A DNA stretch of 64,000 bases from an uncultured Alphaproteobacteria bacterium. Its GTDB lineage: Bacteria; Bacteroidota; Ignavibacteria; Palsa-1295. The notes under the pieces are model-generated. The model was not told where the DNA came from, searched no databases, and saw only the letters and a program-made list of their open reading frames with translations. Of the stretch, positions 47,563 to 63,077 are shown in pieces. The first letter of the stretch is position 1; the number at the start of each line of letters is the position of its first letter. The DNA lies in NCBI GenBank assembly GCA_964404255.1, contig CAYOJJ010000006.1:11567-75566 (forward strand), written 5' to 3'. Position numbers and translations under genes: made by a program.

Positions 47563-47634
47563 TGCCTCGTGGCCTAATGGTATGGCATCTGATTCTGGAT
47601 CAGCAGGTTCCAGGTTCGAGTCCTGGCGAGGCAG
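47563..47634 (+). tRNA. tRNA, most likely tRNA-Gln (anticodon CUG)
   Basis: Cloverleaf: 7-bp acceptor stem TGCCTCG/CGAGGCA, T-arm CCAGG-TTCGAGT-CCTGG, and anticodon loop TTCTGGA with U33 and CTG at positions 34-36. One mismatch at 27:43 makes the isotype call less certain. Confidence 0.7.
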
Positions 47635-47635
47635 C

Positions 47636-47664
47636 AAAAAGGGACTCATCGAGTCCCTTTTTTA
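47636..47664 (+). terminator. Rho-independent terminator after tRNA
   Basis: AAAAAGGGACTCATCGAGTCCCTTTTTTATT: a perfect 8-bp stem, a 4-nt loop and a T-run. Confidence 0.8.
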
Positions 47665-47675
47665 TTGCGTATTAG

Positions 47676-47745
47676 TTTGGTTAGGGTCAAAGGGTCATGG
47701 GGTCAAAGCCTAGGGGTTTGACCCCATGACCCTTGACCCTTGATC
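47676..47745. repeat. Left copy of ~65-bp palindrome-containing direct repeat (ATTAGT..GGGTCAAAGGGTCATGGGGTCAAA-spacer-TTTGACCCCATGACCCTTGACCC)
   Basis: Imperfect inverted repeat with ~23-nt arms built from GGGTCA units. It shares ~80% identity with the copy at 52910-52975. Confidence 0.75.
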
Positions 47746-48057
47746 CTACCTTTCGAATTAATTGGTATCCTTTTGCCGTTATTGAGGTGCGTTTATTTTC
47801 CATCATCACAATATGACCGGAATATTGAAGCTGATAATAAGGTGGTCGGCCGTGGCGGACAACCTATTGTTTTTCTTTCGGGAATGTTTGGCTAACAGAT
47901 CACACCTACGGCATTCACCATATTCATCTAAAAAAGATGAGTATCTGTACATACCGCCCCCACAGTTCTGCGCGAGCATTAAGCAATAATGAACATCCAT
48001 ACTCGTTACTTTATGCTACTTAACCTAGTTAGATAAAGAACTACTAGAAATTTATAT

Positions 48058-48906
48058 ATGAATTTTGATCAATTTAGGGACGAAGATCCCTTAGCAAACC
48101 ATGAACGACTTCGTTCCAATTTCGTCAGGCAATTCGTACAACACTACAACACGCCATCCAGGACGCGGACAGCATATAATAAAGCAACGCCAAAACGCAT
48201 AGTACAATTTTGGGATAATCTTGATCAATTACCTCAGGATGTTAAAGAATGTATGGATTCTTGGAGGGTACTTGAACGGTCTGGATTTGAATTTCAGATT
48301 TTTGACGAAACGACGGCAAGAGAGTTTATCAAGGCTCAATTAGGCTCAAGATATGGAAAAGCATTTGATAAGTGTTATCATCCTTCAATGAAGTCCGACT
48401 ATTTCCGGTATAGCTACATTTTCGTAGAGGGTGGTTTCTATATTGACGCAGATGATGTCTACCATGGAGCTGTGATCGATCATCTATTTGCTGATGGGAG
48501 ATTGAAACTTCAACCATTCTGTTATGATATTGCAACAAATCAAATGGTTTCACCTTCATCTTTTGTGAATCAGGGAGCAAACAAAACGAGTTGGATTTTT
48601 TATTTCAATACAACACCATTAATCGCAAGTCCCAAACACCCTATTGTTGAACGGGCACTGCTTAACGCTACTACATATCTTGAGCAAGTATCAGAAGGAG
48701 AATTACCAGAAGTTCAGGCTTCCACTGGTCCAGGCAACCTCACCAGATCTATTTTTGAACTGCTCGCTGATCAAGCCTGTCCTGAGGAAGAATTGCTTAT
48801 TTTACATGATTGGGAGAAGATATCTACTAGTAAATGGCCGCTTAGTTATCGAAATGACAAAAGGAATTGGAGGCTTTCTAATCAGCAAGCCTATCAAACT
48901 TCATAA
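48058..48906 (+). CDS. Glycosyltransferase family 32-like (DXD sugar-binding region)
   Basis: RIVQFWDNL ... SMKSDYFRYSYIFVEGGFYIDADDV matches the GT32/Gly_transf_sug signature. The gene is AT-rich. Confidence 0.65.
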   Translation: MNFDQFRDEDPLANHERLRSNFVRQFVQHYNTPSRTRTAYNKATPKRIVQFWDNLDQLPQDVKECMDSWRVLERSGFEFQIFDETTAREFIKAQLGSRYGKAFDKCYHPSMKSDYFRYSYIFVEGGFYIDADDVYHGAVIDHLFADGRLKLQPFCYDIATNQMVSPSSFVNQGANKTSWIFYFNTTPLIASPKHPIVERALLNATTYLEQVSEGELPEVQASTGPGNLTRSIFELLADQACPEEELLILHDWEKISTSKWPLSYRNDKRNWRLSNQQAYQTS

Positions 48907-48920
48907 CAAAAATAGAAGCC

Positions 48921-51149
48921 ATGAACTTACTACGCCCTCAACTGGCCATTATCAGTTATGCTTTTCGAACGTGGCTCTCTTTTCGCAGGCTTCTACATAA
49001 ACGAAGGTGTCAAGCATTTGGTATTAAACGTAACGGAAAGCGCTTGCAAATTGAGAAGATCTATGTTATCAACCTTAACCGTGAACCTGGACGTTGGGCC
49101 AGGATGAAGCAAGAGCTCAAACGAATATTTGACTCATCAGGAGTTGAACTCCTAAATTTATCTGTGCGGCATGTTGCTATTGATGCTAATGAGTTTTCAC
49201 GAAATCCGTCTAAAGATGCTCAGATCGATCCTTTTTACACCCTTGAAGATCAGTTATTTGTAGAACCCCAACCGCTGGTTCTTCCAACCCGCCTCGAACT
49301 AAATGAACCGATTCGAATGAGTCGAGCTGAGTGTGCCGTTGCGCAATCACATATCAGTGTATGGAAACAGGTTGCTGAGAGTAATAACGAATACGTACTC
49401 ATACTTGAGGATGATGTATGGTTTCATTTAAACTTCGCAAGCGATTTAGATAAGGTGTGGAATGATCTAGAAAATGATTTGCAGGGTAAATTTGACATTC
49501 TTTATTTGTCTTATCTTGAAGTAAAGCATGGTGCGCCAAAAACTATTTTGTCAAGGAATGTATTTAGACCAATGCGTGGACTTTGGCACCTGTCTGGGTA
49601 TGTGCTTTCTAGAAATGGCGCTGAAAAACTTCTAGGTCTTCTCCCATGTCGTGGCCCGATTGATCTTTGGATAAATCAGCAGTTCAAAACATTGGATGTG
49701 CTTGCAGCTAAACATTCTCTTATTAGCCAACGCAGGGACACTAAATCTAGCAATTCGTATTCAATACTTCCCACACTTACTAAGATAGGGGCAATCACTA
49801 GTGAGGGGGCAGCATTATTTAATATCCGGCCAGCTGAGCAGCCCGTATTTGCTTTTGGCCCTGAAGGTACTGGCCAGTCATCGCTTGCAATGGCCTTGTC
49901 TATGCTAGGATACAGGTGCTGTAGTGATTTCCAAGATATACCTTTAGCTGAAATGGATAATCTTCTCAATGGAAGAGCGGAGAGAGTTTTCAATGCATAC
50001 GTGAATATTGGCTCTTTGTATTCAAAAGTTACGGAGCTCCTGATTCTATACCCAAAGGCAAAGTTTATTATTACGGCAGATAAAAAAGCCGTTTCAGACG
50101 AGATGTTCTTGAAAATGGAAGATAGTCTGAGAAATGCCGATCTGGCTATACTTTATTCAGAAAAATTGAATACGTGGCAAACCATTTGCGAACACTTAAG
50201 GTGTGCGCCACCTAAATGCTCTTACCCTATGGTGAAGGATATTGGTCAAAGACCAATTCTCAACACAAAGAATGAACACAAACCGGCTATAAAAACAAAG
50301 ATTCCTAAACGTGATAGCTCACCATGGGTCATTGAGTCCCATAAGTTATGGCGAGGTATCAGTCTTGTCGAGACAAGGAGTTGGCAGGTTGATACTGGAA
50401 CATTAGTCAAAATCACCGACTCTTTGGAATCTCATGATGCAAAACTGTGGCACCTAAGGAGAGATACTTTCACCGATAACTTGGCATTGTTTCGCCCGTC
50501 AAATGTCGAGTTTAAATCAGGTATAGGAGCTGTGCTTAACGTAAAAAAGGAATCCGTCGGCGTTCGAGATTACACTGCTGCATCGTTATCCAGCCAAAAC
50601 CAATACTTATTCGGAAAATTCGAAGCAACCATCAAAGCATCCAATGTTCCAGGAGTAGTCACTGGACTATTTCTCTACCGCAACTCCCCCCGACAGGAAA
50701 TAGATATCGAAATTACGGGTAATCGGCCAAACCGGCTCTTGGTTAATGTATTTTACAACCCAGGTACTGAAGGAGCAAACTTTGATTATGGTTATAGAGG
50801 AGCTCCGACTTATATTGAATTAGGGTTTGATGCATCTAAGGAAAGTCATCGCTTTCAAATTGAATGGGATCCGTACGAAATTAGATGGTTGGTTGACGAC
50901 AACCTCGTTCATAAACGAACTGTATGGAATCCGACACCTATTCCAGACCTTCCTATGACGTTCCATGTTAATAATTGGGTCTCTCGTTCTGCACAGCTTG
51001 CTGGGCGAATTAACAAACGACATCTCCCAGCTACCTCCATAGTTAGTGAAGTCACACTAACGGCAAATGTCGTCATTCAAAAATCCGAGGACAATGAACC
51101 GCAGTTGCAGACCCTTACTAATGTTAACCCAAGTCAGTTTATTCAATGA
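48921..51149 (+). CDS. Multidomain glycan-modifying enzyme: N-terminal GT25-like glycosyltransferase, central P-loop/sulfotransferase-like region (tentative), C-terminal GH16 glycoside hydrolase/transglycosylase
   Basis: The N-terminus (EKIYVINLNREPGRWARMKQEL ... YVLILEDDVWFH) is GT25-like. The middle has FAFGPEGTGQSSL. The C-terminus (QEIDIEITGN ... FQIEWDPYEIRWLVDDNLVHKRT) carries the GH16 ExDxE catalytic motif. Confidence 0.6.
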   Translation: MNLLRPQLAIISYAFRTWLSFRRLLHKRRCQAFGIKRNGKRLQIEKIYVINLNREPGRWARMKQELKRIFDSSGVELLNLSVRHVAIDANEFSRNPSKDAQIDPFYTLEDQLFVEPQPLVLPTRLELNEPIRMSRAECAVAQSHISVWKQVAESNNEYVLILEDDVWFHLNFASDLDKVWNDLENDLQGKFDILYLSYLEVKHGAPKTILSRNVFRPMRGLWHLSGYVLSRNGAEKLLGLLPCRGPIDLWINQQFKTLDVLAAKHSLISQRRDTKSSNSYSILPTLTKIGAITSEGAALFNIRPAEQPVFAFGPEGTGQSSLAMALSMLGYRCCSDFQDIPLAEMDNLLNGRAERVFNAYVNIGSLYSKVTELLILYPKAKFIITADKKAVSDEMFLKMEDSLRNADLAILYSEKLNTWQTICEHLRCAPPKCSYPMVKDIGQRPILNTKNEHKPAIKTKIPKRDSSPWVIESHKLWRGISLVETRSWQVDTGTLVKITDSLESHDAKLWHLRRDTFTDNLALFRPSNVEFKSGIGAVLNVKKESVGVRDYTAASLSSQNQYLFGKFEATIKASNVPGVVTGLFLYRNSPRQEIDIEITGNRPNRLLVNVFYNPGTEGANFDYGYRGAPTYIELGFDASKESHRFQIEWDPYEIRWLVDDNLVHKRTVWNPTPIPDLPMTFHVNNWVSRSAQLAGRINKRHLPATSIVSEVTLTANVVIQKSEDNEPQLQTLTNVNPSQFIQ

Positions 51150-52780
51150 AAATTATATCATTTAATCCCGGTCATGATGGCGCTTTTGTTTACCTCGAAG
51201 ACGGGCAGTTGATTGCCTCGATTGAAGCTGAGAAAAACTCTCGTTATCGTCACTCGCCGCTTTCTGTGCCAGATGCGTTCAGCATTCTAGGTGAACTTAG
51301 AGAGGTGCCGGATGTGCTTTGTAGAGGAGGGTGGTGGCCAGGCAATTCTCTTTCGTCTGAGCAGCGCTCTCTTGCTGGATACTATGGTTTAAGCAACAGT
51401 GATATTATCACCGGTCAAAAACGCCTTTTAGGAAAGAATGTTGATTATTTCTCCTCTTCGCACGAACGATCCCATCTTCTTTGCGCCTTTGGTATGTCAG
51501 ATTTACCAAAGGGAACCCCCTGCTACGCTCTACTTTGGGAAGGCGTGATCGGTTCGTTTTACGAAATTGATGCTGAGTTAAATTTGACAAAACTCGCGGA
51601 TGTTATGCCTGAGCCAGGACATCGATATGCCTTGCTTTACGGCTTGGCTGACCCAACCTTTGATAAAAAAAATGCAGAATTCTCGCGATTTTCCGACGCA
51701 GGGAAGTTAATGGCATTAACTTCATTTTCGAAGAGAAGCAAACCTACGGATGAGGAGGAAAAGATAATAGAGTTTCTAATGCAAGACACTCTTCATCTAA
51801 AGGCATACGAGTGCGAAGCCTTAAGACATTATTGTCACTATAATGTAGGATTGGATGATGTTGAGTTTCGTAACTTCACAGGTATAGTAAGCGATAGAAT
51901 ATTTGATCGTTTTTATCAGTATGCCAAATTGAAGATGAAGAGAAACATGCCGCTGCTCATTACTGGTGGGTGTGGTCTTAATTGTGATTGGAATTCGAAA
52001 TGGAGCGAGGCTAATCTCTTTTCGGAAATATTTGTACCACCTGTCGCCAATGATTCAGGGTCAGCTATTGGCACGGCGATTGATGCCCAATTCCATTTCA
52101 CTGGCAATCCTAAGATAAATTGGAGTGTCTACTCTGGTCTTGAATTTAATGCTGAGGGCCCATTTGATGCATCATTATTTGACGAGTACGAAACAAGTTA
52201 TACAATGATTTCTGAAATGCTTGCAAATGATTTGATTGTCGGATGGGTAGATGGGAAATATGAAATTGGCCCTCGTGCCTTGGGAAATCGTTCAATTCTT
52301 GCTTCACCCTTTCATGAAAGCACTAGAATTCGGCTAAACGAGATTAAGCAGCGCGAACAGTTTCGCCCAATTGCACCTGTTTGCTTAGAAGAAGATGCTC
52401 CAAGATGGTTTAATTGCAATCAGTCTAGCCCATATATGCTTTACACGAAGATTGTTTCTACAGATGCTCTCGCTGCGGTGACCCACGTCAATGGTACTGC
52501 ACGTATACAAACGGTATCTAATAAAACCAACAGCCACTTATATAAATTGCTTATTGCCTTCAAGGCACTCACTGGCTATGGGGTTTTGTGTAATACTTCT
52601 TTGAATTTCAAGGGGAGAGGATTCATAAACAATATTGCTGATCTCGCAACATATACAATAGACCACAATTTGGATGGATTTGTAATTGCAGAAAAATGCT
52701 ATATGTTAAGGAGCTCTAAAAGTTATCAGGCCTATCTTAGTATCAAAAATTCAGTACGGCACAGGGAACGCCAAAATTGA
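51146..52780 (+). CDS. Carbamoyltransferase, NodU/CmcH family
   Basis: MKIISFNPGHDGAFVYLEDGQLIASIEAEKNSRYRHS is a carbamoyltransferase N-terminal signature; 544 aa. ATGA overlap with the previous gene. Confidence 0.75.
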   Translation: MKIISFNPGHDGAFVYLEDGQLIASIEAEKNSRYRHSPLSVPDAFSILGELREVPDVLCRGGWWPGNSLSSEQRSLAGYYGLSNSDIITGQKRLLGKNVDYFSSSHERSHLLCAFGMSDLPKGTPCYALLWEGVIGSFYEIDAELNLTKLADVMPEPGHRYALLYGLADPTFDKKNAEFSRFSDAGKLMALTSFSKRSKPTDEEEKIIEFLMQDTLHLKAYECEALRHYCHYNVGLDDVEFRNFTGIVSDRIFDRFYQYAKLKMKRNMPLLITGGCGLNCDWNSKWSEANLFSEIFVPPVANDSGSAIGTAIDAQFHFTGNPKINWSVYSGLEFNAEGPFDASLFDEYETSYTMISEMLANDLIVGWVDGKYEIGPRALGNRSILASPFHESTRIRLNEIKQREQFRPIAPVCLEEDAPRWFNCNQSSPYMLYTKIVSTDALAAVTHVNGTARIQTVSNKTNSHLYKLLIAFKALTGYGVLCNTSLNFKGRGFINNIADLATYTIDHNLDGFVIAEKCYMLRSSKSYQAYLSIKNSVRHRERQN

Positions 52781-52861
52781 GACTATCGAGAAGTTGTCGG
52801 CAACATTAGAAATAGAAATGTACAAACTGTTTATTAAAGACTCTTATTTGAAATAATAACG

Positions 52862-52890
52862 AAGCCGCTCAAACGCGGCTTTTTATTTTG
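52862..52890 (+). terminator. Rho-independent terminator of glycan cassette
   Basis: AAGCCGCTCAAACGCGGCTTTTTATTTT. Confidence 0.75.
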
Positions 52891-52909: not shown

Positions 52910-52978
52910 ATTAGTATCAGGGTCATAGGGTCAAACCCCTATAGGTTTGACCCTATGACCCTTTGACCCTGGGGTTGC
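52910..52978. repeat. Right copy of palindrome-containing direct repeat (ATTAGTATCAGGGTCATAGGGTCAAACC-CCTATAGG-GTTTGACCCTATGACCCTTTGACCCTGG)
   Basis: Near-perfect 18-nt inverted arms around a palindromic centre. It shares the ATTAGT...AGGGTCA.AGGGTCA...ATGACCCTTTGACCCT backbone with the 47676-47745 copy. Confidence 0.75.
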
Positions 52979-54044
52979 GGTAGTGCCCTGGGCGTCCTTT
53001 GGTTAATCCTTCTCTAATACCTCTTTTGGCAGTGGAGTGTGATACCTCGAACTGGTCCTGGTAGCGCTGAAGTAATTCCCCATACGGCAGTTCTTCCTCG
53101 TCATCCTCAAAGAGGAGGGAGCAATCTCTTTCCGGTTTATAACTTCCGGGTAGGGTAAAATCGCTGTGGGGCCGTTCGTTGCCGGTGCGGGTAAAGGTAA
53201 GGGAGTGCTCATGAAACTGCAATTCGAGCGCTTTTTCTTTTAGTTTGCCGGAGACTCCATTACCTTTAAGCACCGAAAGGTATCGTATGCCTTCTGCTTC
53301 TCCTTTTCTGAGTTCGAGCAGCAATCTCGTTTTTTGTCCCAGTGCACCGGCGCCTTGTACATGCCGTTGGTTCGGAGCTACGGAATAGGCCGCTTTATTT
53401 AAGTGATGGATAAACAAAAGAAGGCATTCGAATTTATTGGCCAGCAGCGCAAAGGGTTTGAGAAATGCCCGTACATCGGTGTTCGAATTTCCATCCCTGC
53501 CGTTAAAGAGATCGCCGTAGCTATCTAAGACGATCAGATCCACGGGGTTTGCTGAAAGCATCGTGAACAGGTTCTCTAAGAGGGCCTTGGTATGTATCTG
53601 ATCGGCAAAGACTATTTGCAGGTGGTCGCGGTTGCAGCTTGCCGTATGATCTGCGCTAGCCTGCAATTGCTTTGTAAAGGCAAATTGGGTGGTATCGATG
53701 CTATCCTCGGTGGAAACATAGATGGCTCTCGAGTGGCGAAGCGATAAGGGAAAGCCAAGAAATTCGCTGCGGCCAAGGGAAATACTTAAGGCCAGTTCTC
53801 GGCAAAACATCGACTTCCCGCTATCGGGAGCACCGGCAATCGCTGCTAATCCCATCACCGGCATGATAGCGCCCCAGAGGTAGCGGTGCGGGGTGCTCTG
53901 GCGCTCGAGTAACTGGCCGAGCGAAAAGATGTATTGCTCGGATTCCGATTCATTCTCCGCTTGCTTGAAGAACGAGTCTAAGTCGGCGATAGAAGATTCG
54001 GGTTGAAAGATGGAATTCACGGCTTCTTCCGTACTGGGGTTCAT
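52953..54044 (-). CDS. AAA_25/RepA-like RecA-fold ATPase (mobile-element replicative helicase-like)
   Basis: Walker A GAPDSGKSM and Walker B-like IVLDSYGDLF, ~363 aa. The 5' part of the longest ORF overlaps the repeat, so the true start may be downstream. Confidence 0.6.
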   Translation of the reverse strand: MNPSTEEAVNSIFQPESSIADLDSFFKQAENESESEQYIFSLGQLLERQSTPHRYLWGAIMPVMGLAAIAGAPDSGKSMFCRELALSISLGRSEFLGFPLSLRHSRAIYVSTEDSIDTTQFAFTKQLQASADHTASCNRDHLQIVFADQIHTKALLENLFTMLSANPVDLIVLDSYGDLFNGRDGNSNTDVRAFLKPFALLANKFECLLLFIHHLNKAAYSVAPNQRHVQGAGALGQKTRLLLELRKGEAEGIRYLSVLKGNGVSGKLKEKALELQFHEHSLTFTRTGNERPHSDFTLPGSYKPERDCSLLFEDDEEELPYGELLQRYQDQFEVSHSTAKRGIREGLTKGRPGHYRNPRVKGS

Positions 54045-55057
54045 TGGGTGAGTTCTTTCTCTATGTATTCTTTGTAAATGAGATCGGCAGCGTCAAGCCC
54101 GTCCGAAGGATCGGTTGTCAGTTTCCATTGGTCAAGTTTCTCGGCCTGGCAATTGATATCAGTGAGAATCTTGCACGCCTTCTGTGCACCGGTTTCACCG
54201 GCAGTATCGCAATCGTATAATACTTTAACGGTTCTTCCACGAAGGATGAGCGCTTTCTCTTTAGTAAGTCCGTTCGCACCGCCGCTTGCAATCCATATAA
54301 ATTCCGGTTTATGATGACTTAAAATGATAGCCGTTTTTTCCGACTCAACAAGAATAATTTGCGTGTTCCGATTATACGGCACCCCGTACCGATTCTTAAA
54401 TCCCGCACATAACTGATGTTCGCCAAAAAGGCAGGTGTGAAATCCCTCCGATTTTGAATACAGGAAGGAAGCGGGGGAGTGCTTATCGCGGTGGAAGCCA
54501 TCCGGTAAATACTTTATTTTCTTGGCGTTGACATATTGTTGCCGGTAATTCTGGTACCAATAGAGCACGGCTCCATCCGAAGCGAAGCCGATATTCCAGT
54601 CCGATAAAATGCTTTCTCTGGTCAAGCGGATTATTGTCTCAGCAAACGGATGTACTGCGCGAAGCCTTTTAAGCTCCGAGTGCAGGCGTTGGCTTGTAAG
54701 CCCTGAACGCTCGTTTGCTTCTGCGGTCGTTAAGCCACCATCAAACTCCATAATAGCTGCCCTTTCTTCAAATGAGTCGCATTCGGTATTCTGATCTTCG
54801 CTAGCGAACCCTACAATGGTTTTGGCCACCTGTTGCCGATTGATGAATTGCTGCAATTGCTGTGGCCTTGTCTTCTTGCCCTGTTCTCGATGGGCATTCG
54901 CCGTATCGGTTATTGGTGGAAAGATGGTACTGTCACAGGAAAAGCAATGCCCAAAGTGCTCGTGTCCTTTGAACGCAGCAAAGGCAGTCCGAGCAGCACA
55001 TCGGGGGCACCGTGTTCTTTTATTTGAATAAGAATATGTTGGGAATGCAGTAGCCAT
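54041..55057 (-). CDS. DNA primase with CHC2-type zinc finger and Toprim domain (P4-alpha/mobile-element type)
   Basis: N-terminal CPRCAARTAF...GHCFSCDS zinc finger and a C-terminal Toprim region (ILVESEKTAIIL ... VLYDCDTAGETGAQK). ATGA overlap with the ATPase gene. Confidence 0.65.
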   Translation of the reverse strand: MATAFPTYSYSNKRTRCPRCAARTAFAAFKGHEHFGHCFSCDSTIFPPITDTANAHREQGKKTRPQQLQQFINRQQVAKTIVGFASEDQNTECDSFEERAAIMEFDGGLTTAEANERSGLTSQRLHSELKRLRAVHPFAETIIRLTRESILSDWNIGFASDGAVLYWYQNYRQQYVNAKKIKYLPDGFHRDKHSPASFLYSKSEGFHTCLFGEHQLCAGFKNRYGVPYNRNTQIILVESEKTAIILSHHKPEFIWIASGGANGLTKEKALILRGRTVKVLYDCDTAGETGAQKACKILTDINCQAEKLDQWKLTTDPSDGLDAADLIYKEYIEKELTQ

Positions 55058-55225: not shown

Positions 55226-55789
55226 GTGAAACGCCGTCAGTTAACCGATGAGGAATTAATAGCAGGGCTGCGTGGGACTCACCGCGAAGCTGAAATCGCA
55301 TTTACCGAAATCTACAGCCGATATGCACAGCGAACCTATGCGTTCATCTTACGAATGATGGGCGATGGTGCCGCCAGTGAAGATATTCTGCAAGAGGTCT
55401 TTCTTAAATTCTTCAATGCCACCCGGCAGCAATTAGTCTTTACTAACCTTCGGGCATTCATTTTTATGATCGCGCGTAACCAGTGTCTTAATTACAAGCG
55501 GGATGTGCCGCAAACCGAATCGATCGAGCACATGGAATTCGTGGTTCACGAATTTTCAGGAGCGATCGAGCAGAATGAGTTACTGCAGTTGGTTACCTTA
55601 TCGCTGGAGTTACTCGAGATCGAATTTCGAGAAGCGTTTGTGCTCAAGTATTACCAGGGGTATTCGTATGAGGAGATGTCTCAGCTAACCGGCGATACGA
55701 TACCGGCACTCAAGAATAGAGTATGGCGGGCCAAAGAACAAATACGCCGGGCATTGAAACCCTATATAATAGAAGAGCAAAATAAATAG
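55226..55789 (+). CDS. RNA polymerase ECF-type sigma factor
   Basis: Sigma70 region 2 (RYAQRTYAFILRMMGDGAASEDILQEVFLKFF) and region 4 (FREAFVLKYYQGYSYEEMSQLTG). Confidence 0.8.
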   Translation: MKRRQLTDEELIAGLRGTHREAEIAFTEIYSRYAQRTYAFILRMMGDGAASEDILQEVFLKFFNATRQQLVFTNLRAFIFMIARNQCLNYKRDVPQTESIEHMEFVVHEFSGAIEQNELLQLVTLSLELLEIEFREAFVLKYYQGYSYEEMSQLTGDTIPALKNRVWRAKEQIRRALKPYIIEEQNK

Positions 55790-55803
55790 TACTACCTATA
55801 GTT

Positions 55804-56865
55804 ATGTCCTACGAAAAACGGATTCACGATTATTTGGCGGGCGAACTCAGCCCGGAAGAAGAGCGGCGGCTCTTTGACGATCTTTCGGCCCATCCTGAAT
55901 GGCGGCACGAACTTACTGCTCAATTAAAGATCGAGCAGGCAGCCCAAAAAGATTTAGGGACGGTTGTTGTCCCGACTGCTGTGACGGCGGCTATTTTTTC
56001 CTCCCTGGATTTTGCGGCTCCCGATCAATCTATTGCTTCACCGGTAAAGACGATGACTGGAGTTACCGGAACAACTATTCTCTCTCGCTTTGGACTCTTT
56101 GCTATGGTATCAACGGTGTCGGCTATCATAGCAGTTGGATGCTTAGTATTTATGCTGTACCGCTCCTCGGAAACTACACCGATCGTACATTCTGCAAGCG
56201 CCCCTAACGTTTATTCATCGGTACATGATAGTGTACAAACTCACAGTTCTACCTCAGAGCCCAATCAGGTAGTTAAGGCTGCAACTTCGTCGCCTGCCGC
56301 CACAAAAGAAATGACGGCATTGAAAACTCCTTTTATCAAGACTATCCCCAACGAACCAATGAGGTTCTATTTTGATATCGGAAGATTTTCCTCTGTGGAT
56401 TATCTCACACAGAAAAAAATCATCGGTGTTGCCGACGAAGGAAAAATCTATTGTTCGGAAGATGGAGGCAAATCGTGGGAAATGCAAACGAGCGGGACTT
56501 CCAGCGATCTCTATGGAGTACATTTTATCGATACCACTCATGGTATTGCTGTCGGTGCGAAGGGTACCGTCTTACATACCAGTACTGCCGGAAGGGAATG
56601 GCAAAAAATGTCCAGCGGTACCGAAGCGACGCTGGCAACGGTTCGCTATGCTAATCGCGATACCGTTTATGCCTGTGGTGCACAGGGGACTATTATTCGG
56701 AGCACTTCCAGCGGGATACAATGGCAGCAGCTTGAAAGTGGTACAACGGCAAATTTATTTAAGATCAGATTTGAAAACGGTTCGACTGGTATTGTCGGCG
56801 GCGAACACAATCTGACGCTTGAAACCGATAATGCCGGTACTACCTGGCATGTGAAACCACAATAA
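55804..56865 (+). CDS. Anti-sigma factor: N-terminal zf-HC2-like segment, TM helix, C-terminal BNR/Ycf48-like beta-propeller
   Basis: N-terminus MSYEKRIHDYLAGELSPEEERRLFDDLSAHPEWRHEL and a TM segment. The C-terminus has repeated xTSGTxxxLxxVxFxxxxxGxAVGxxGTIL units. Confidence 0.6.
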   Translation: MSYEKRIHDYLAGELSPEEERRLFDDLSAHPEWRHELTAQLKIEQAAQKDLGTVVVPTAVTAAIFSSLDFAAPDQSIASPVKTMTGVTGTTILSRFGLFAMVSTVSAIIAVGCLVFMLYRSSETTPIVHSASAPNVYSSVHDSVQTHSSTSEPNQVVKAATSSPAATKEMTALKTPFIKTIPNEPMRFYFDIGRFSSVDYLTQKKIIGVADEGKIYCSEDGGKSWEMQTSGTSSDLYGVHFIDTTHGIAVGAKGTVLHTSTAGREWQKMSSGTEATLATVRYANRDTVYACGAQGTIIRSTSSGIQWQQLESGTTANLFKIRFENGSTGIVGGEHNLTLETDNAGTTWHVKPQ

Positions 56866-56879
56866 TAATCACGATCGTC

Positions 56880-59800
56880 ATGAAAGATATTGCTATGGCT
56901 ACTCACAGACGAGCTCAATGGTTAGTGCTGGGATTATTATTATGCGGAGCAATAAATATTGCTTCGGCTCAGGTCCCGAAGACTATCTCTTATCAGGGAA
57001 GAATTCAGCAGGGGACTTCGCTTGTGAGCGGCAAACATTTGCTGCACATTGCTTTTTATGATGCCGAGACCGGTGGAACAAAGCTCTACGAAGAATCTCA
57101 ACAGCAGGAAATCTCCGATGGATTATTCTCGATCGTGATCGGGACGGTCACTCCTTTCCCTGCTTCTTTGCCATTCGATAAACCATACTTTCTGGCTATA
57201 AGTATCGATGGTGCGGATGAACTACTGCCGAGAACTCCTATGACGAGTGTTCCTTACTCGCTTAATAGTCATTACGCGGAGTTAGCAAAAGGCCTTACTC
57301 CTGATGCGAATGGAGTTGTCACCAGTATTAATGAATTAAGCGGAGCTATTCGTATAACGGGTGATAGTACAACTGCTATTACGCAAACCGGTAATATAAT
57401 TTCTATTCATTCTTTCGGAAGTGGCAGCACAGCTACTGCCGGAATTCAATCGATTACGAGCCCGGATAAAACAATTGCAATAACCGGTACTGCCGGGCCA
57501 AGCACCACAATCGGTGTTGCCGATAACGCTATTACTACCTCAAAGCTCGCTAACGGTGCGGTTACTCTTTCAAAGATAAATCAGAGTGGCGCTAAAATTG
57601 GGCAGATCATTAAATGGAATGGCAGCTCCTGGGTTGCAGCAGATACGACTATTCCTTCTGCTTCGAATCTTATTCCGGGCACAACACCGAATAGCACCCT
57701 TAGATGGAATGGTACGCAATGGGTGGAAAATACCAATCTCCGCAGTGACGCAACTGGCAATACGAGCGTAAATGGCAGTACTACACTCGGTGATGGGACC
57801 GGTAATGATGACCTCACTATTCAACCCGGCTCCGGCGTAGTAAAGATAGCAGGTTTTGGAAAAGGAGTTGTAAAGAGCACGGCGGTGGGAGTTCTTTCAA
57901 GCACTGCTCTTGATTTAGCGAACGATGTGACCGGTATACTATCAGTCTCAAAAGGTGGTACGGGCGTCTCGACTCTTCCTGTAGGTCAACTGCTTGTCGG
58001 CAACGGAGTAAACCCAATTAGTACCATGAGCTTAAATGCCGGTGCAGGAATTGCTATTAGCTCGAATGGCAGCGCGCTAACTATTACTAATATAGATACA
58101 CTCCAATGGAAACTGCTGGGTAATACTACTATCAATCCTGCTACACAATTTTTAGGCACTACCGATCTGAATCCGATCCCATTTCGTACCAATAATATCG
58201 AGCACATGCGCCTTGATGCATCGGGAAAACTCGGTATCGGTACTACGGTGCCATCTCAATTGCTCGAAGTTAGAAATGGAAATATCCTTATTTCGAATTC
58301 CGGTACAGCAGGGAGTTTACAGATAGCCGCACCGGGAAACAGCTTGTCCACTGCTTTTACAACCTCATCTCAAACGGCCGATATAACATATAAATTACCT
58401 CCAAGCATTGGCACTGCTAATCAGGCGCTCGCCATTGCTTCGGTTTCCGGTACTACCGCTACGCTTGGTTGGGTTAATGCGGCAAGTGCTACGGCCTGGA
58501 ATCTCATCGGCAATAGCAGCACTACTGCCGGAACAAATTTTCTTGGTACCACCGATGATCAGCCACTGTATGTGCAAGTTAAAAATGGCGCGACGGTTTC
58601 CAATAGTCTTATTCTCAATCCTAATGGTTCGATCCAGCATAGCCCAACTCGCAATGCGAGAGGGGCTAGTGCAGTCGATCTTCAGCTCAATGGTGCGGTG
58701 GGCACTCATGTGGCCAGCGGTCAGTATTCGGTACTATCCGGTGGCAGAAATAATGTAGCGGGAGGGGATGGCTCTGTCGTTGCAGGTGGCGAAGGTAATT
58801 CTACCGTTTCAAATTATTCCGTTGTCGGCGGTGGAGCTTCTTCGGTTGCCGGGGGAAGTTATTCCGTTGTAAGCGGAGGAAATTTAAACAGTGCCAGTGG
58901 TGCACTCTCATCGGTGATCGGTGGAATAGCTAACGAGTCATTTGGTGCTCGTTCGTCAGTTCTTGGAGGCGGCTATTTAAAGTTAGGTGCCAATAGTGTC
59001 GGCTATAATTATGAATCCGGGACTACTATAACCAATATCAGTGCTCTGAGCAATCTGGCATATTTTGGTAATGTCGATATGATGATCGGTAATACCGATA
59101 ATACTGCGCGTGAGCTTCGCTTCTACGAACCTAATACGTCCTTCACGTATACTGCTACAAACTTCAGCTCCTTCAAAGCCGGCACACAGGCAAGCGATAT
59201 TATTTATATACTTCCAACTTCACAACCAACGGCTAATCAGGTTCTTTCGGCAACTTCTATAACAGGATCAGGGCCGTATACTATTGGGCTTGGTTGGACG
59301 AACAGTGCTAATGCAGCCTGGAATCTTACAGGTAATAGTGGGACGACGGATGGCACAAATTTTCTCGGCACTACTGATAACGTCCCATTCACTATTCGTG
59401 CAAATAATATACGGGCATTTCGGATAGAGCCGTTTGCAGGTGCAGTAAACATTATTGCGGGAATAAATACTAATAGTGTCGGAAGTGGATTTTCTGGAGC
59501 TACAATTTCCGGAGGAGGATCAACCTTTAGTCCAAATACTATTTCAAATTATTTTGCTACAATATCTGGTGGCGCCCAGAATACTGTTACGGCCAATGGA
59601 GGAGTGGTTGCCGGTGGTCAGGTGAATGCCGCAGGTGGTTCGGTTGGTTCTACGGTTAGCGGTGGTTTTTATAATACTGCAAGCGGTTCATTATCTAGTA
59701 TTGCCGGAGGTTCGAGTTTAAAAGTTGGAAATCTTAGTTTCGGATTCAATGGTGAGCAATATAGCATCAATCCAAGTACTACTATAACAGACATCTCTTC

Positions 59801-62800
59801 GCATTCAAATACCGCTTATTTCGGAAATGTGGACCTATGGCTCGGTAATGTTGATAACACCGCAAGAGGGCTGCGCTTTTACGAACCCAATTCATCGCGC
59901 ACCTATACCAATACTAACTTTTCATCCTTCAAAGCCGGGACACAAACGGATGATATTATTTATACACTGCCGACTTCGCAGCCAACCGTCAATCAGATAC
60001 TTTCCGTCACTTCAGTAAGCGGGTCCTCTCCATACGAAGTAGCCCTTGGCTGGGCAACGAGCACCGGGCCGGCCTGGAATCTTACCGGGAATAGTGGTAC
60101 TACGATCGGCACAAATTTCCTGGGCACGACCGATAATCAACCCTTTGAAATACTTGTAAAGAATGGAAGCTCTATTAGTAATTCCTTGATCTTTGAATCT
60201 AATGGCTCTATTCATCGGGACAATCAGGGGAATGCCCGCGGAGCGTATGCCATCGATCTGCAATCTCTTCCGACCGGTGCCTCAGCACTTCATGTAGCCA
60301 GCGGTAATCAATCTGCCATTTTGGGTGGAGTAAGTAACCAGGCAAGCGGGGCCTATTCTGTTAGCACCGCAGGATATGATAATATCGCATCCGGAGACTA
60401 TTCTGCTATTGGCGGTGGAGATGCAAACAGCGCAACGGGCAGCCATGCAACTATTAGTGGTGGGCGGTATAACGTTGCCTCGGGAGATGGGTCATTTATC
60501 GGTGGCGGTGGTTATCAGGGAGCGACGAAACCTAATGTTGCTGCCGGTACTGCTTCGGCGATTGTCGGAGGATGGGCCAATTATACTGCGGGGTTCTATT
60601 CATCAGTGGCCGGAGGAGAAAGTAATGGGGTAACAGGTACAAGTTCTGCCATTGCCGGAGGAGGATATTTGCGCTTAGCAGGCAACGGATCTTTTGGTTT
60701 TAATAATGGAAGCAGCGCCTCGGATAGTGCTTATGTAAGTGCGAACGCTACGGCCTATTTTGGCAATGTCGATCTGTGGCTTGGTAATACCAATAACACC
60801 GCAAGCCAGTTGAGATTTTATGAAGCGCAAAATGGCGGCATAACCATGCCGGGAGCTGCTACAAATTATTCGGCATTCAAAGCCGGTGCACAAACAGCCG
60901 ATATTACTTATACGCTTCCAACAACCCAGCCGAGCGCTAATCAAGTGCTTTCGGCAACGACCGTCAGTGGAACGGGGCCTTATTCCGTAACTCTTGGTTG
61001 GGCAGATGCCGGTACTGGCAGTGGGTTTGTCAATTACGGTCCAACGACTGCTCAAGCTACACTGACTCCGAGAACAACACCGCTATTTAATATAGCCTAT
61101 ATATCTTCTGCCGCTAATGCTAATGCCGCAGGCGCTACTATTACATCCAGTGCAGGAACCGCGGGTAATTTTAATGCTACCGGTCTAACTGTTATTGCTA
61201 CTGCTACCGGCACCGGGCTTGCAAGAGCTATCGATGCAACCGGAAGAGTAAATATTAATGCGCCGTCGAGTTATGATATTGGCGGGACAAGATTTTTATG
61301 GACGGGCGCAAATTCTTCAAATCAGAATACTCTGGTCGGTAATACCGGGAATACAGTAAATGCTGCAAACCTTAATACGTTTGTAGGATACAATGCCGGA
61401 TACAGCAATGATTATGGGGATGGTAATACGTTTCTGGGTGCAGAAAGCGGTAAGAATACAAACGGCGCTTCTGGCTCGGATAACACATTCGTTGGCGCTG
61501 AATCGGGCTATTCGAATACTGATGGAACACAGAATACTTTTATCGGCAGTTATTCCGGCTATTTCAATACTACAGGAAATTATAATATTTTTATTGGTGA
61601 AAATACCGGTTTTTCAAATGTCAGTGGGACAAGCAATACATTTGTGGGAATGAATGCCGGCTGGCAAAATACGGCAAACAGTAATTCGCTGTTCGGACAA
61701 GGTTCTGGATTTAACCTTAAAACAGGATCAAACAATACCTTTATAGGAGTATCAAGCGGTTACTACGATACTTCGGGAGGAAGTAACGTTATGATCGGGG
61801 TCAGTTCGGGCCTTTACCATAAGGCCGGAGATAATAATACCTACATCGGAAGAGGCTCGGGAAGTATCGATACGGCAGGTATCAATAATACAATGATAGG
61901 ATATGGAGCAAGCCCAACGGCAGGTCATTTCAGTAATGCGACAGCTATTGGAGCTTCGGCACAGGTCGGCGCAAGTAATAGTATCATTCTCGGTAGTATT
62001 TCCCCGGTAACAAAAGTCGGAATTGGTACCATTGCTCCGCAACAACAATTAAATATTGAGAACGGTAATGTTCTTCTTTCGAGAACGACAGGCAATAGTC
62101 CGGATTCAATACAATTCCAGGGTACGGGCACCGGAATATCTTCATTTGCTGCCGGAGCCCAAAGTACAACCACGATAAATTATACATTGCCGACCTCGCA
62201 GCCAAGTGCTAACCAAGTGCTGACGGCAAGTTCGGTAAGTGGCTCTGGTCCCTATTCGGTTGCTCTTAGTTGGGCTAATAGTACTGCGTCGGTTTGGAGT
62301 CTGTCCGGAAATAGTGGAACAAGTTCTTCGTCCAATTTTATTGGCACGACGGATAATCAGGATCTCGTCATTAAAACCAATAATAGTGAGGCTCTTCGGG
62401 TAAAAGCCTCCGGGAATATTGGTCTTGGCACCACTACTCCTTCTCATAAATTACATAGTGTTAATAGCACCACTACCGATGAAGTTGCTGCTATCTATGG
62501 TACTACCACCAGCTCGACTTCCAGCCAGTCTATTGGTATGTGGGCAGATGCAAGTAATACTGCCACTTCAAATACCGGTACTATTGCTATGCTTGCTACG
62601 GGTAATGGGAATACAACGGCCGGACAAACCAACATTGCCCTCCAGGTAAACGATGGAGAATTTACTATAGGAAGAACAACAGAAACGCCAACGACGGGTA
62701 CCACCGTTAATGCTGCTACCGGTGGTACCGATTACTCTGCAGAAGGACCGAGTGGGATGGTTGAATTGACACTGGGCAATGGAAATCTTGCAACTGCTGC

Positions 62801-63077
62801 TCCCACCGCCAACACGATGCAGAGTTTTGGAGCAATCACTATTAATAATCGATATTGTCAGGCAGCAAGTATCGTACTGGTCAATGTATCGGGTATGACC
62901 GAAGATGGCACAGCACCGGATGTGCGGGATGCAGCATTCATAGTAAATGTAGATAATATCGCCGCAGGGTCATTTTCAGTTCGTATCAAGATGATACCTT
63001 CGGCCACCAATGCTACCAACTATAGCTCGAACGATAAAATAAGAATAGGGTACGTCATTGTAAATCCTTCCAGATAA
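56880..63077 (+). CDS. Giant secreted repeat protein (2065 aa) with ~6 internal ~200-aa repeats and tail-fibre-like NxFxGxxAG C-terminal region
   Basis: Signal peptide. Repeats of FKAGTQ..DIIYTLPTSQPTANQVLSATSVSGSGPY..LGW...WNLTGNSGTT.GTNFLGTTDNQP. A C-terminal run of NTFVG..AG / NTFIG..SG heptad-like repeats is followed by ATAIGASAQVGASNSIILGS...VGIGT. Confidence 0.7.
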   Translation: MKDIAMATHRRAQWLVLGLLLCGAINIASAQVPKTISYQGRIQQGTSLVSGKHLLHIAFYDAETGGTKLYEESQQQEISDGLFSIVIGTVTPFPASLPFDKPYFLAISIDGADELLPRTPMTSVPYSLNSHYAELAKGLTPDANGVVTSINELSGAIRITGDSTTAITQTGNIISIHSFGSGSTATAGIQSITSPDKTIAITGTAGPSTTIGVADNAITTSKLANGAVTLSKINQSGAKIGQIIKWNGSSWVAADTTIPSASNLIPGTTPNSTLRWNGTQWVENTNLRSDATGNTSVNGSTTLGDGTGNDDLTIQPGSGVVKIAGFGKGVVKSTAVGVLSSTALDLANDVTGILSVSKGGTGVSTLPVGQLLVGNGVNPISTMSLNAGAGIAISSNGSALTITNIDTLQWKLLGNTTINPATQFLGTTDLNPIPFRTNNIEHMRLDASGKLGIGTTVPSQLLEVRNGNILISNSGTAGSLQIAAPGNSLSTAFTTSSQTADITYKLPPSIGTANQALAIASVSGTTATLGWVNAASATAWNLIGNSSTTAGTNFLGTTDDQPLYVQVKNGATVSNSLILNPNGSIQHSPTRNARGASAVDLQLNGAVGTHVASGQYSVLSGGRNNVAGGDGSVVAGGEGNSTVSNYSVVGGGASSVAGGSYSVVSGGNLNSASGALSSVIGGIANESFGARSSVLGGGYLKLGANSVGYNYESGTTITNISALSNLAYFGNVDMMIGNTDNTARELRFYEPNTSFTYTATNFSSFKAGTQASDIIYILPTSQPTANQVLSATSITGSGPYTIGLGWTNSANAAWNLTGNSGTTDGTNFLGTTDNVPFTIRANNIRAFRIEPFAGAVNIIAGINTNSVGSGFSGATISGGGSTFSPNTISNYFATISGGAQNTVTANGGVVAGGQVNAAGGSVGSTVSGGFYNTASGSLSSIAGGSSLKVGNLSFGFNGEQYSINPSTTITDISSHSNTAYFGNVDLWLGNVDNTARGLRFYEPNSSRTYTNTNFSSFKAGTQTDDIIYTLPTSQPTVNQILSVTSVSGSSPYEVALGWATSTGPAWNLTGNSGTTIGTNFLGTTDNQPFEILVKNGSSISNSLIFESNGSIHRDNQGNARGAYAIDLQSLPTGASALHVASGNQSAILGGVSNQASGAYSVSTAGYDNIASGDYSAIGGGDANSATGSHATISGGRYNVASGDGSFIGGGGYQGATKPNVAAGTASAIVGGWANYTAGFYSSVAGGESNGVTGTSSAIAGGGYLRLAGNGSFGFNNGSSASDSAYVSANATAYFGNVDLWLGNTNNTASQLRFYEAQNGGITMPGAATNYSAFKAGAQTADITYTLPTTQPSANQVLSATTVSGTGPYSVTLGWADAGTGSGFVNYGPTTAQATLTPRTTPLFNIAYISSAANANAAGATITSSAGTAGNFNATGLTVIATATGTGLARAIDATGRVNINAPSSYDIGGTRFLWTGANSSNQNTLVGNTGNTVNAANLNTFVGYNAGYSNDYGDGNTFLGAESGKNTNGASGSDNTFVGAESGYSNTDGTQNTFIGSYSGYFNTTGNYNIFIGENTGFSNVSGTSNTFVGMNAGWQNTANSNSLFGQGSGFNLKTGSNNTFIGVSSGYYDTSGGSNVMIGVSSGLYHKAGDNNTYIGRGSGSIDTAGINNTMIGYGASPTAGHFSNATAIGASAQVGASNSIILGSISPVTKVGIGTIAPQQQLNIENGNVLLSRTTGNSPDSIQFQGTGTGISSFAAGAQSTTTINYTLPTSQPSANQVLTASSVSGSGPYSVALSWANSTASVWSLSGNSGTSSSSNFIGTTDNQDLVIKTNNSEALRVKASGNIGLGTTTPSHKLHSVNSTTTDEVAAIYGTTTSSTSSQSIGMWADASNTATSNTGTIAMLATGNGNTTAGQTNIALQVNDGEFTIGRTTETPTTGTTVNAATGGTDYSAEGPSGMVELTLGNGNLATAAPTANTMQSFGAITINNRYCQAASIVLVNVSGMTEDGTAPDVRDAAFIVNVDNIAAGSFSVRIKMIPSATNATNYSSNDKIRIGYVIVNPSR

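Follow-up and report, generated by a model that had tools for sequence, protein, structure and literature searches.

A mobile three-gene cassette with predicted glycan-building, glycan-processing and carbamoylating activities, usually found next to anti-phage defence genes

Small glycan-modifying operons are carried by temperate phages and plasmids, as exemplified by the gtrABC and oac seroconversion cassettes, which plausibly alter phage receptors; the gtr systems comprise an integral membrane flippase and a periplasm-facing glycosyltransferase (GT), and are host-specific. Sugars are also modified by the NodU-family enzymes, which O-carbamoylate them. Here we describe a trio of genes from a 64,000-nucleotide stretch of DNA (hereinafter the window, meaning that whole stretch) of contig CAYOJJ010000006.1 in assembly GCA_964404255.1, deposited as an uncultured Alphaproteobacteria bacterium and placed by GTDB in the Ignavibacteria. 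The trio codes for a GT32-type protein, a tri-domain protein combining GT25, Sulfotransfer_4-like and glycoside hydrolase family 16 (GH16) domains, and a carbamoyltransferase. While the enzyme families are known, the architecture, mobility and genomic niche of the trio appear undescribed. Our literature search found no paper on the trio, on a carbamoyltransferase in an anti-phage role, on a link between Gabija and glycosyltransferases, or on the cassette of the IncC plasmid discussed below; one candidate paper was set aside because it concerned an ornithine carbamoyltransferase. Current database labels for these proteins read ‘family 16 glycosylhydrolase’ or ‘GR25 glycosyltransferase involved in LPS biosynthesis’ (LPS being lipopolysaccharide), the second of which is probably misleading.

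The three open reading frames (ORFs) lie on the same strand and form a tight operon, as indicated by the 14-nucleotide gap between the GT32 stop and the tri-domain start, the ATGA stop/start overlap of the tri-domain and carbamoyltransferase genes (ttcaATGAaaatt) and a clean intrinsic terminator past the last gene (Table 1). All catalytic motifs of the trio are intact, those for binding 3′-phosphoadenosine-5′-phosphosulfate (PAPS) in the Sulfotransfer_4-like domain excepted. For the tri-domain protein we found more than 120 full-length homologues (65–76% identity) and a second clade of about 700 amino acids, and an exhaustive search yielded about 40 full-length clusters at 50% identity (about 3,400 homologues overall); thus, its architecture is not a chance fusion. 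Of 59 genome loci, more than 50 have the entire trio with gene order and spacing unchanged; they represent at least 12 phyla, and the identities are 52–76%. The hosts include Bacteroidota, Acidobacteriota, Verrucomicrobiota, Nitrospirota, Planctomycetota, Lentisphaerota, Ignavibacteriota, Methylomirabilota, Binatia, Zixibacteria and Alpha-, Beta- and Gammaproteobacteria, among others, and are all diderm with the exception of one short contig of a metagenome-assembled genome (MAG). DNA homology between loci is confined to one collinear block (65–77% identity), which sets in at 48056–48058, where the GT32 gene starts with its ATG, and stops within the 3′ end of the carbamoyltransferase gene. The flanking genes are not conserved from locus to locus, and no fourth component was found.

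Several lines of evidence point to the horizontal movement of this block as a unit. The guanine + cytosine (GC) content of the cassette departs from that of the host flanks in both directions, and the pairwise distances of the three proteins correlate with each other (r = 0.86–0.94). The nearest neighbours cross phyla, with 91% identity between a betaproteobacterial and an ignavibacteriotal version, and 90% between an acidobacteriotal and a betaproteobacterial one. For such cross-phylum pairs the synonymous divergence (dS) of all three genes is only 0.13–0.32 with ratios of nonsynonymous to synonymous divergence (dN/dS) of 0.1–0.4, implying recent transfer followed by purifying selection. A sister group, which we term clade B, has tri-domain proteins of about 700 amino acids that are about 36% identical to those of the window clade, and comes from Rhizobium, Mesorhizobium, Methylobacterium, Myxococcus xanthus, Pseudomonas aeruginosa, Paraburkholderia, Planctomycetota and Eremiobacterota. 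It retains orthologues of all three genes (GT32-like at 39% and carbamoyltransferase at 64% identity), in the order carbamoyltransferase, GT32-like, tri-domain. The linkage has therefore survived rearrangement, which argues for functional coupling, and we regard it as almost certain that the trio is a mobile three-gene functional unit.

The tri-domain proteins of a Methylomirabilota MAG (L025) and a Burkholderiaceae MAG (L046) are about 100% identical and their flanks have a common 13-nucleotide repeat at the same offsets (−423, +154); this reflects either a very recent transfer or a binning error. About 10% of the copies look degraded, and some of these cases may be long-read sequencing errors in MAGs: an insertion of about 2.6 kb splits the tri-domain gene in L043, apparent frameshifts are seen in the tri-domain gene of L053 and L054 and in the carbamoyltransferase gene of L007 and L037, and on plasmid pSWIT02 (L061) an IS4 element (IS, insertion sequence) has entered the carbamoyltransferase gene.

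The vehicles of the cassette are themselves mobile. Full-length copies are present on conjugative plasmids of the IncC, IncFII, MOBP and MOBF types, namely the IncC plasmid pCf164_LMB-1 of Citrobacter, an IncFII plasmid of Klebsiella michiganensis, pSWIT02, Sphingobium pSHV1, Rhizobium pRL9b4 and Aliarcobacter plasmids. The plasmid-borne copies neighbour IS21 and IS4 elements and small tyrosine recombinases as well as DUF262, Abi and Shedu genes, a restriction–modification (R-M) S subunit, RES-Xre, a ThiF/multiubiquitin system, Fic and VapBC. A search for near-identical cassette DNA on plasmids gave no match, and neither did one for the tri-domain protein in GenBank phages. Searched with the Citrobacter cassette DNA, 5,426 complete E. 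coli genomes gave no match, which makes this species an apparently clean background. The K. michiganensis plasmid pKmfe267-2 (L063, positions 5687–10948) bears a two-gene version with the GT and tri-domain genes and without the carbamoyltransferase; a tyrosine recombinase/integrase gene of about 200 codons stands on each side of it, one of them beyond a small GFA-family gene, and this version may be a recombinase-bounded cassette.

One contig from IMG/VR is a genuine P2-like prophage, with capsid, GPO, terminase and portal genes, in which the cassette comes after the portal gene and a gene for a Dam methylase; the contig ends just past the cassette, short of gpA. In P2 the defence hotspot, with old and tin, is the cos-proximal stretch that separates gpA from the portal gene gpQ (PMC9122126; PMC13586616), and the prophage cassette lies on the same portal side. 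We also took a census, covering about 45 genome loci, of the two genes closest to the cassette on either flank, which yielded 96 Pfam families for each flank. Integrases, recombinases and transposases recur in it, whereas no polysaccharide-locus genes are found among the recurrent neighbour families. The GT25 domain does not belong to an LPS or lipooligosaccharide (LOS) locus, as neither these families nor the scanned window ORFs include LPS or polysaccharide genes, and a setting in an LPS or exopolysaccharide (EPS) locus finds no support.

The cassette usually adjoins anti-phage defence genes, and judged from the individual loci this co-location appears non-random. A recurrent neighbour is Gabija. 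Complete GajA+GajB pairs lie directly upstream of the GT32 gene in five genome loci (L021, L028, L035, L038 and L041), always in the same order and on the same strand. These Gabija pairs are mutually only 24–51% identical (apart from one pair at 92%), while the adjacent cassettes are 61–83% identical. In a clade B metagenome locus (L151/L152), Gabija is instead directly downstream of the tri-domain gene, together with an integrase. Across both clades the two systems are on the same strand and 88–508 nucleotides apart; in L151 an ORF of 101 amino acids bridges the tri-domain gene and GajA with overlapping gene ends. Gabija and the cassette thus became neighbours on at least five independent occasions, spread over both clades, and it is hence possible that they are functionally linked and act jointly. 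Elsewhere the neighbours are type I R-M systems, a CBASS cyclase with a 2TM effector, PtuA of Septu, PDC-S06 and PDC-M05A, and further islands combine HNH, methylase and FokI-type proteins, SIR2_2 with a ResIII/SNF2 helicase (with a faint PLDc match), or SNF2 with AAA_11/12 helicases. This horizontally mobile module in defence islands is the strongest signal of the locus and had been missed by the preliminary description.

In terms of domain content the preliminary description, which had been made from the letters and ORFs of the window, fared well. Its three ORFs are where it had placed them, and the IYVINLNRE, ILEDD, GPEGTGQSSL and EIDIE motifs it had read are all present in the 742-residue translation. 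Its GT32, GT25, GH16 and carbamoyltransferase assignments all pass the curated Pfam cut-offs by which we judged them, and the ATGA overlap it had reported between the fusion and carbamoyltransferase genes is confirmed. It had also taken the proteins to be cytoplasmic enzymes for want of obvious signal peptides. We found neither a signal peptide nor a transmembrane (TM) segment in any of the three proteins (maximum 19-residue Kyte–Doolittle mean 1.3), and as far as their sequences tell all three are soluble and cytoplasmic.

The GT32 ORF matches Gly_transf_sug (PF04488) with 30.5 bits against a cut-off of 23 and Caps_synth (PF05704) with 26.6 against 24.5. The aspartates D130, D132 and D133 of its DxD motif (YIDADD) are invariant in 27 sequences drawn from both clades. 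A profile of 27 family members retrieves the yeast Och1 alpha-1,6-mannosyltransferase (9n3s, a GT32 enzyme) as its best match in the PDB (E 3.5e-8), and the retaining DXD toxin glycosyltransferases YeGT, PaTox and SetA rank next. These relationships identify it as a predicted retaining GT-A glycosyltransferase using a nucleotide-sugar donor. The second glycosyltransferase is the GT25 domain of the tri-domain protein (Glyco_transf_25, PF01755; 63 bits against 24; residues 45–241), in which LEDDVWF is invariant in both clades, including L162, E163, D164 and D165. Its PDB match is the procollagen galactosyltransferase GLT25D1 (E 2e-7), and it is by the same token a predicted inverting beta-glycosyltransferase.

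At the C-terminus, the GH16 domain (Glyco_hydro_16, PF00722; 95.9 bits against 22; Pfam span 525–692) displays the EIDIE motif with E593, I594 and E597 invariant, and D595 nearly so, in both clades. Foldseek superposes its model on the lichenases 3i4i, 1mac and 1gbg with target template-modelling (TM) scores of 0.86–0.90 and a root-mean-square deviation (rmsd) of about 2 Å. The top match, 3i4i, has an E of 1.6e-19, a target TM-score of 0.89 and an rmsd of 1.8 Å, and the top 50 are all GH16. The domain is nevertheless neither a typical lichenase, as it scores 93.5 against the cut-off of 300 for the BglS equivalog (NF047856) and lacks a signal peptide, nor ExoK (NF052392; 43.7 against 350). Transglycosylation is as likely a role for it as hydrolysis. 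Other proteins, of 808–929 amino acids (P0341, P0343, P0350, P0360 and P0368, and in locus L147), combine this GH16 subtype with GT2 synthase-type domains (Glyco_trans_2_3). We do not count these fusions as part of the trio system, since their contexts are unrelated and they have no GT32 or carbamoyltransferase partner. The recurrence of GH16 with GT2 synthase-type domains fits a make-and-process logic. To this extent the proposal of the preliminary description that the cassette builds, then trims or transfers, and carbamoylates a glycan remains plausible in its general logic, though not in its sulfation part.

A full-length AlphaFold2 (AF2) model of the tri-domain protein (61 sequences; predicted local distance difference test, pLDDT, 72.7; predicted TM-score, pTM, 0.47) has three well-folded domains with disordered linkers at residues 273–306 and 447–492, preceded by an N-terminal helix (residues 8–23) in which F15 and R16 are nearly invariant. 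The first 45 or so residues in both clades have a mean hydrophobic moment (muH) of 0.59 and a net charge of +5.7, and we infer from the model that this helix may act as an in-plane membrane-surface anchor.

The domain between the GT25 and GH16 modules is a case of homology without conservation of the expected active site. In the full protein its match to Sulfotransfer_4 (PF17784) is marginal (22.9 against 22.8 bits, residues 309–385), but isolated middle domains from diverse homologues match this family in 27 of 27 cases, with a best E of 5.7e-11 and no competing family, and the top three PDB matches of a middle-domain profile are Sulfotransfer_4 enzymes. The sulfotransferase-like character noted in the preliminary description is thus borne out as homology, but the residues that bind PAPS are not conserved. 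The Lys/Arg position of the 5′-phosphosulfate-binding loop (5′-PSB; PKxGTT / GRTGT) is variable (G/N/D/S/K), only G313, G318 and S321 being conserved in the P-loop-like loop; likewise the Arg of the 3′-phosphate-binding (3′-PB) ‘LTvRD’ motif aligns to a variable LTAxK/ITADK. The domain is moreover about 65 residues shorter than SgdX2. In clade B the loop is replaced by ‘WTa-ggerEg’ and the next strand is largely deleted, leaving the helix LAMALSMLG, while the GT25 and GH16 motifs of the same proteins stay invariant. With both PAPS-binding basic residues missing, the truncation and the degeneration in the sister clade, the possible sulfation proposed earlier is unlikely. AF2 models the middle domain within the full-length protein as a five-stranded alpha/beta fold (pLDDT 70–86). 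Modelled alone (38 sequences) it reaches a pLDDT of only 45.7, an unusable model, and the fold search with the full-length model was saturated by GH16 matches. Judging from these sequence features, it is probably not a working sulfotransferase despite its homology to them, and probably serves as a non-catalytic spacer or regulatory domain.

The carbamoyltransferase is the most conserved member of the trio, with 64% identity between the clades. It contains both Carbam_trans_N (PF02543; 75.2 bits against 24) and Carbam_trans_C (PF16861; 184.8 against 27). The GHD and HxxxH (SSSHERSH) metal-site motifs of its Kae1-like domain are conserved and its YrdC-like C-terminal domain is strongly conserved. 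Its PDB matches are 7xb6, GdmN, NovN and TobZ (E 6e-36 to 6e-28), and it matches the phage family phrog_1601 (‘Nol-like’) over its full length (E 6e-80). The best NCBIfam match is NodU (NF041651), with 253.5 against an equivalog cut-off of 1000, a shortfall that sets it well apart from NodU proper.

Since the trio is mobile and sits beside defence genes, it is probably involved in phage–bacterium conflict rather than in ordinary cell-wall sugar synthesis. The best overall reading, which we favour tentatively at somewhat less than an even chance, is a mobile operon whose enzymes work at the membrane face, making a short glycan, cutting or transferring it and adding a carbamoyl group to it, with a role in phage exclusion through envelope remodelling. 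The N-terminal helix would tether the enzymes to the cytoplasmic face of the inner membrane, and only universal donors would be used, namely uridine diphosphate (UDP)-sugars, and carbamoyl phosphate with ATP. The acceptor of an alpha-linked and a beta-linked sugar would be a molecule that diderm bacteria share and that is probably lipid-linked. The fused GH16 domain would cleave or transglycosylate the beta-linked product of its GT25 partner, and the carbamoyltransferase would cap a sugar hydroxyl, while the middle domain would not sulfate but act as a spacer or ligand-sensing module. The altered glycoconjugate might then aid the carrying element in conflicts with phages and other mobile genetic elements (MGEs) through receptor masking or an effect of the superinfection-exclusion type. 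The enzymatic logic by itself, as deduced from the sequences, we consider fairly probable.

Several points weigh against this reading. Every functional step in it is deduced from family membership and context, and the membrane-anchor role of the helix is a prediction only. We know of no established precedent for a cytoplasmic GH16 in envelope glycan assembly. No flippase or membrane glycosyltransferase accompanies the cassette, unlike in the seroconversion systems. The carbamoyltransferase is accessory to a core of GT32 and tri-domain proteins, because some lineages lack it and carry those two genes only. The single exception to the diderm hosts, a 7-kb MAG contig (L020), is labelled Actinomycetota, which if genuine weakens the idea of a diderm acceptor. 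As to conflict, the association with defence is one of guilt by association: some loci (e.g., L158) have no defence gene nearby, P2 hotspots and islands carry non-defence cargo too, and none of the three proteins has a match in PADLOC-DB 2.0 at E <= 0.01.

Much of the same evidence could be accommodated by an anti-phage system with an intracellular target, which would glycosylate or carbamoylate phage DNA, protein or a nucleotide, or drain the UDP-sugar or carbamoyl-phosphate pools; the degenerate sulfotransferase-like domain would then be a nucleotide sensor and the system might cooperate with Gabija. It would fit the way in which very divergent Gabija pairs adjoin the cassette, repeatedly, independently and on the same strand, in the two clades, as well as the position beside the P2-like portal gene on the side of the known hotspot, the CBASS, Septu, SIR2, R-M, Shedu, Abi and DUF262 neighbours, the patchy distribution under strong purifying selection and the cytoplasmic nature of all the proteins. 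A P-loop-like domain that appears to keep its fold but not its catalytic residues is also what one would expect of a sensor. However, it is not obvious what an endo-beta-glycanase domain would do to DNA or protein targets, no toxic effector or domain of the abortive-infection type is evident, and the basic amphipathic helix suggests a place at the membrane surface and not in the cytosol; PADLOC and the literature again offer no match. We deem this version unlikely, though when it is taken together with envelope remodelling, a conflict-related role of one kind or the other is reasonably likely.

The remaining explanations leave conflict aside. That of the preliminary description, a Nod-factor-like cassette building and trimming a carbamoylated, possibly sulfated beta-glucan-type oligosaccharide on a surface glycan or secreted signal, here taken as belonging to the host's own glycan biology, can point to the domain families as called, to NodU as the best NCBIfam match, to the resemblance of the GH16 domain to lichenase and ExoK, and to rhizobia among the hosts. 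We give it only a small chance: the NodU threshold is missed widely, the PAPS-binding residues are not conserved and the middle domain is degenerate in clade B. Furthermore, no NodABC, exporter, Wzx/Wzy or nucleotide-sugar genes are present in the recurrent families of the censused loci or among the scanned window ORFs, and a cassette that occurs in at least 12 phyla, carried by plasmids, a prophage and islands, is a poor fit to a host-specific signal. By analogy to the cyclic beta-glucan synthases, which combine GT and GH-type domains, the trio might instead be a miniature biosynthetic cluster for a soluble carbamoylated glycoside or oligosaccharide (an antibiotic, signal or osmolyte) that would be produced in the cytoplasm out of common metabolites, with the GH16 domain releasing or cyclising the product. 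The solubility of all three enzymes, the GT–GH fusion suggestive of making and releasing, and the action of the closest solved carbamoyltransferases (TobZ, GdmN and NovN) on natural-product sugars or aglycones speak for it, and a need for universal donors only would explain the portability. Yet no exporter, immunity or regulatory gene travels along, no scaffold-forming enzyme is present and a soluble pathway would have no need of a membrane-surface helix, so its chances are slim. The resemblance of GH16 to secreted lichenases could lastly suggest a catabolic set for beta-glucan utilisation, or the fusion could be meaningless or an artefact of assembly. With no signal peptide, transporter or sugar-catabolism genes, and a fusion conserved under purifying selection in thousands of sequences, both ideas are effectively refuted by conservation and context and their chance is close to negligible.

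A more specific form of the conflict role we regard as conceivable but doubtful: the trio would be a novel kind of anti-phage or MGE-conflict system that takes effect by making, processing and carbamoylating a glycan, and not by cutting nucleic acids or depleting NAD or nucleotides, maybe with Gabija as a partner and with the sulfotransferase-derived pseudoenzyme domain maybe serving as a nucleotide-sensing switch. If a conflict role is borne out, carbohydrate chemistry would join the known mechanisms of bacterial immunity and exclusion, and there would be an explanation for a 4.7-kb cassette kept nearly intact across a dozen or more phyla, including on clinical IncC and IncFII resistance plasmids. 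Even a non-defensive trio would represent a portable three-enzyme pathway, including a conserved GT–pseudoenzyme–GH fusion, which requires substrates common to very different bacteria.

The copy in the window (Table 1) is a 5.3-kb low-GC insertion next to tRNA-Gln, flanked by inverted hairpins of about 60 nucleotides. The GC content of the block is about 0.40 between flanks of about 0.50; it begins just 3′ of tRNA-Gln(CTG), with GC falling from about 0.53 to 0.39 at the left hairpin and returning to about 0.48 at the right one. The hairpins are inverted copies of one asymmetric element (the best alignment is of the left with the minus strand of the right) with matching inner ends (GATCCTA / GATACTA). 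Their motif is GGGTCAWRGGGTCAAA, and the GGGTCA(W)(R)GGGTCAAA-array hairpin occurs in only two copies in the 64 kb, where 0.07 would be expected by chance. The right hairpin overlaps the 3′ end of a minus-strand AAA_25 ORF and provides its last codons. The pair represents either host elements of the REP type (repetitive extragenic palindromic) or the termini of a local non-autonomous mobile element; its motif is absent from all 146 related loci examined. We rejected the hairpins as integron attC sites, as by eye they have no RYYYAAC / GTTRRRY cores, and the ORFs scanned in the 45–63 kb part of the window include no integrase. Insertion at a tRNA was likewise discarded as the general mode of integration, with only 2 of 44 scanned loci carrying any tRNA and neither of these adjoining the cassette, and so were terminal repeats or att sites common to the loci, since DNA homology stops at the coding boundaries; flanking repeats were seen only in the window, L056 and L010. 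For an empty-site comparison, the closest relative of the flanking peptidase (in L067) is only 60% identical; that locus is syntenic with the window up to a 165-codon gene and then diverges into housekeeping genes. A C-terminus resembling those of the type IX secretion system (T9SS) was noticed in L067; on this and on the nearest relatives of the cassette, the host of the window could tentatively be placed in the FCB group. The leader (47741–48057) has no convincing promoter, as promoter-like matches in it are no commoner than in shuffled sequence.

Table 1. Positions of the cassette, its domains and its boundary features in the window.
Feature	Position	Strand	Remarks
tRNA-Gln(CTG)	47563..47635	+	ARAGORN; directly upstream of the inserted block; adjacency only in this genome
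Left boundary hairpin, inverted GGGTCA(W)(R) unit array	47683..47740	.	dG -30.2 kcal/mol, z -8.6
Low-GC 5′ non-coding leader of the cassette	47741..48057	+	Leader not conserved in other loci
GT32-type protein, predicted retaining GT-A glycosyltransferase, 282 aa	48058..48906	+	PF04488, PF05704; invariant YIDADD
Tri-domain protein, 742 aa: basic amphipathic helix, GT25, degenerate Sulfotransfer_4-like and lichenase-type GH16 domains	48921..51149	+	
Residues 8-23, conserved aromatic basic amphipathic helix	48942..48989	+	AF2, muH, conservation
Residues 45-241, GT25 domain, predicted inverting GT-A	49053..49643	+	PF01755
Residues ~309-430, Sulfotransfer_4-homologous five-stranded alpha/beta domain	49845..50210	+	PF17784, PDB profile, AF2
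Residues ~494-718, GH16 beta-jelly-roll with intact EIDIE	50400..51074	+	PF00722, Foldseek
Predicted O-carbamoyltransferase of the TobZ/NodU/CmcH family, 544 aa, Kae1-like N-terminal and YrdC-like C-terminal domains	51146..52780	+	
Intrinsic terminator closing the operon	52861..52890	+	Reads as a terminator on the opposite strand too
Right boundary hairpin, inverted copy of the left element	52919..52975	.	dG -22.2 kcal/mol, z -6.5

The surroundings of the cassette have several features of their own. Directly after tRNA-Gln, at 47636–47666, a GGGACTC-ATC-GAGTCCC stem followed by TTTTTTATT resembles by eye an intrinsic terminator, which a consensus scan did not list. Directly past the cassette, the AAA_25 gene (RepA/DnaB-like, related to phage primase-helicase PHROGs) overlaps a DUF6371/Toprim primase-like gene (52953–55057, minus strand); such a pair is a replication module typical of integrative or satellite elements, and looks like part of an older integrated element. 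Further downstream (55226–63077, plus strand) are an extracytoplasmic function (ECF) sigma factor, a protein of 353 amino acids with a YCF48/BNR-like C-terminal domain, presumed to be an anti-sigma factor, and a highly repetitive, Gly/Ser/Thr/Asn-rich protein of 2065 amino acids that has no Pfam match at E <= 1e-4. Elsewhere in the window a second low-GC block (GC 0.35 at 34–36 kb) contains a 1026-residue NACHT-domain nucleoside triphosphatase (NTPase) gene next to clpX (33916–36996, minus strand), which looks like a horizontally acquired bacterial gene of the nucleotide-binding leucine-rich-repeat (NLR) type, akin to anti-phage genes; it is followed by an ORF of 199 amino acids without a Pfam match (36983–37582, minus strand).

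Set against the known systems, each component of the trio is of a familiar family, and its deployment appears new. The GT25 domain is the same GT-A domain, with the invariant EDD motif, as in the LOS/LPS core enzymes of the Lic2A/LgtB/LpsA type and in GLT25D1, and it resembles the bacterial LPS enzymes in lacking a TM segment and in its probable site of action, the cytoplasmic face of the membrane; unlike them, it is fused to two further domains, lies outside LPS loci, moves across phyla and is always partnered by a GT32 protein. The GH16 domain shares the fold and the EIDIE nucleophile/Asp/acid–base motif with ExoK and the lichenases (Bacillus BglS; 1gbg, 1mac, 3i4i), but the lichenases are secreted single-domain hydrolases, whereas this one is predicted to be cytoplasmic and forms the C-terminus of a glycosyltransferase fusion. 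With the Sulfotransfer_4 enzymes (SgdX2, 8y9p; 9kf1; 5tiz) the middle domain has homology and a C-terminal W..LC..L....P..FP motif in common, while it differs from them in having no conserved PAPS-binding Arg/Lys and in missing about 65 residues. The carbamoyltransferase has both Pfam domains and the metal-site motifs in common with TobZ (3ven), GdmN (7vyj), NovN (9s2t) and phrog_1601, but unlike NodU it is below the equivalog score and genetically locked to the GT32 and tri-domain pair. At the level of the whole cassette, the window copy differs from an integron cassette in having neither attC cores (by eye) nor an integrase among the ORFs scanned between 45 and 63 kb. Like gtrABC and oac, the trio is a small accessory operon with a predicted glycan-modifying function, but it comes without membrane proteins and crosses phyla. 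Finally, unlike Gabija and the other systems of defence islands, the trio has no nuclease, NTPase or classical defence domain and no PADLOC model, but it occupies the same niche as they do, adjoining Gabija on the same strand in at least six loci.

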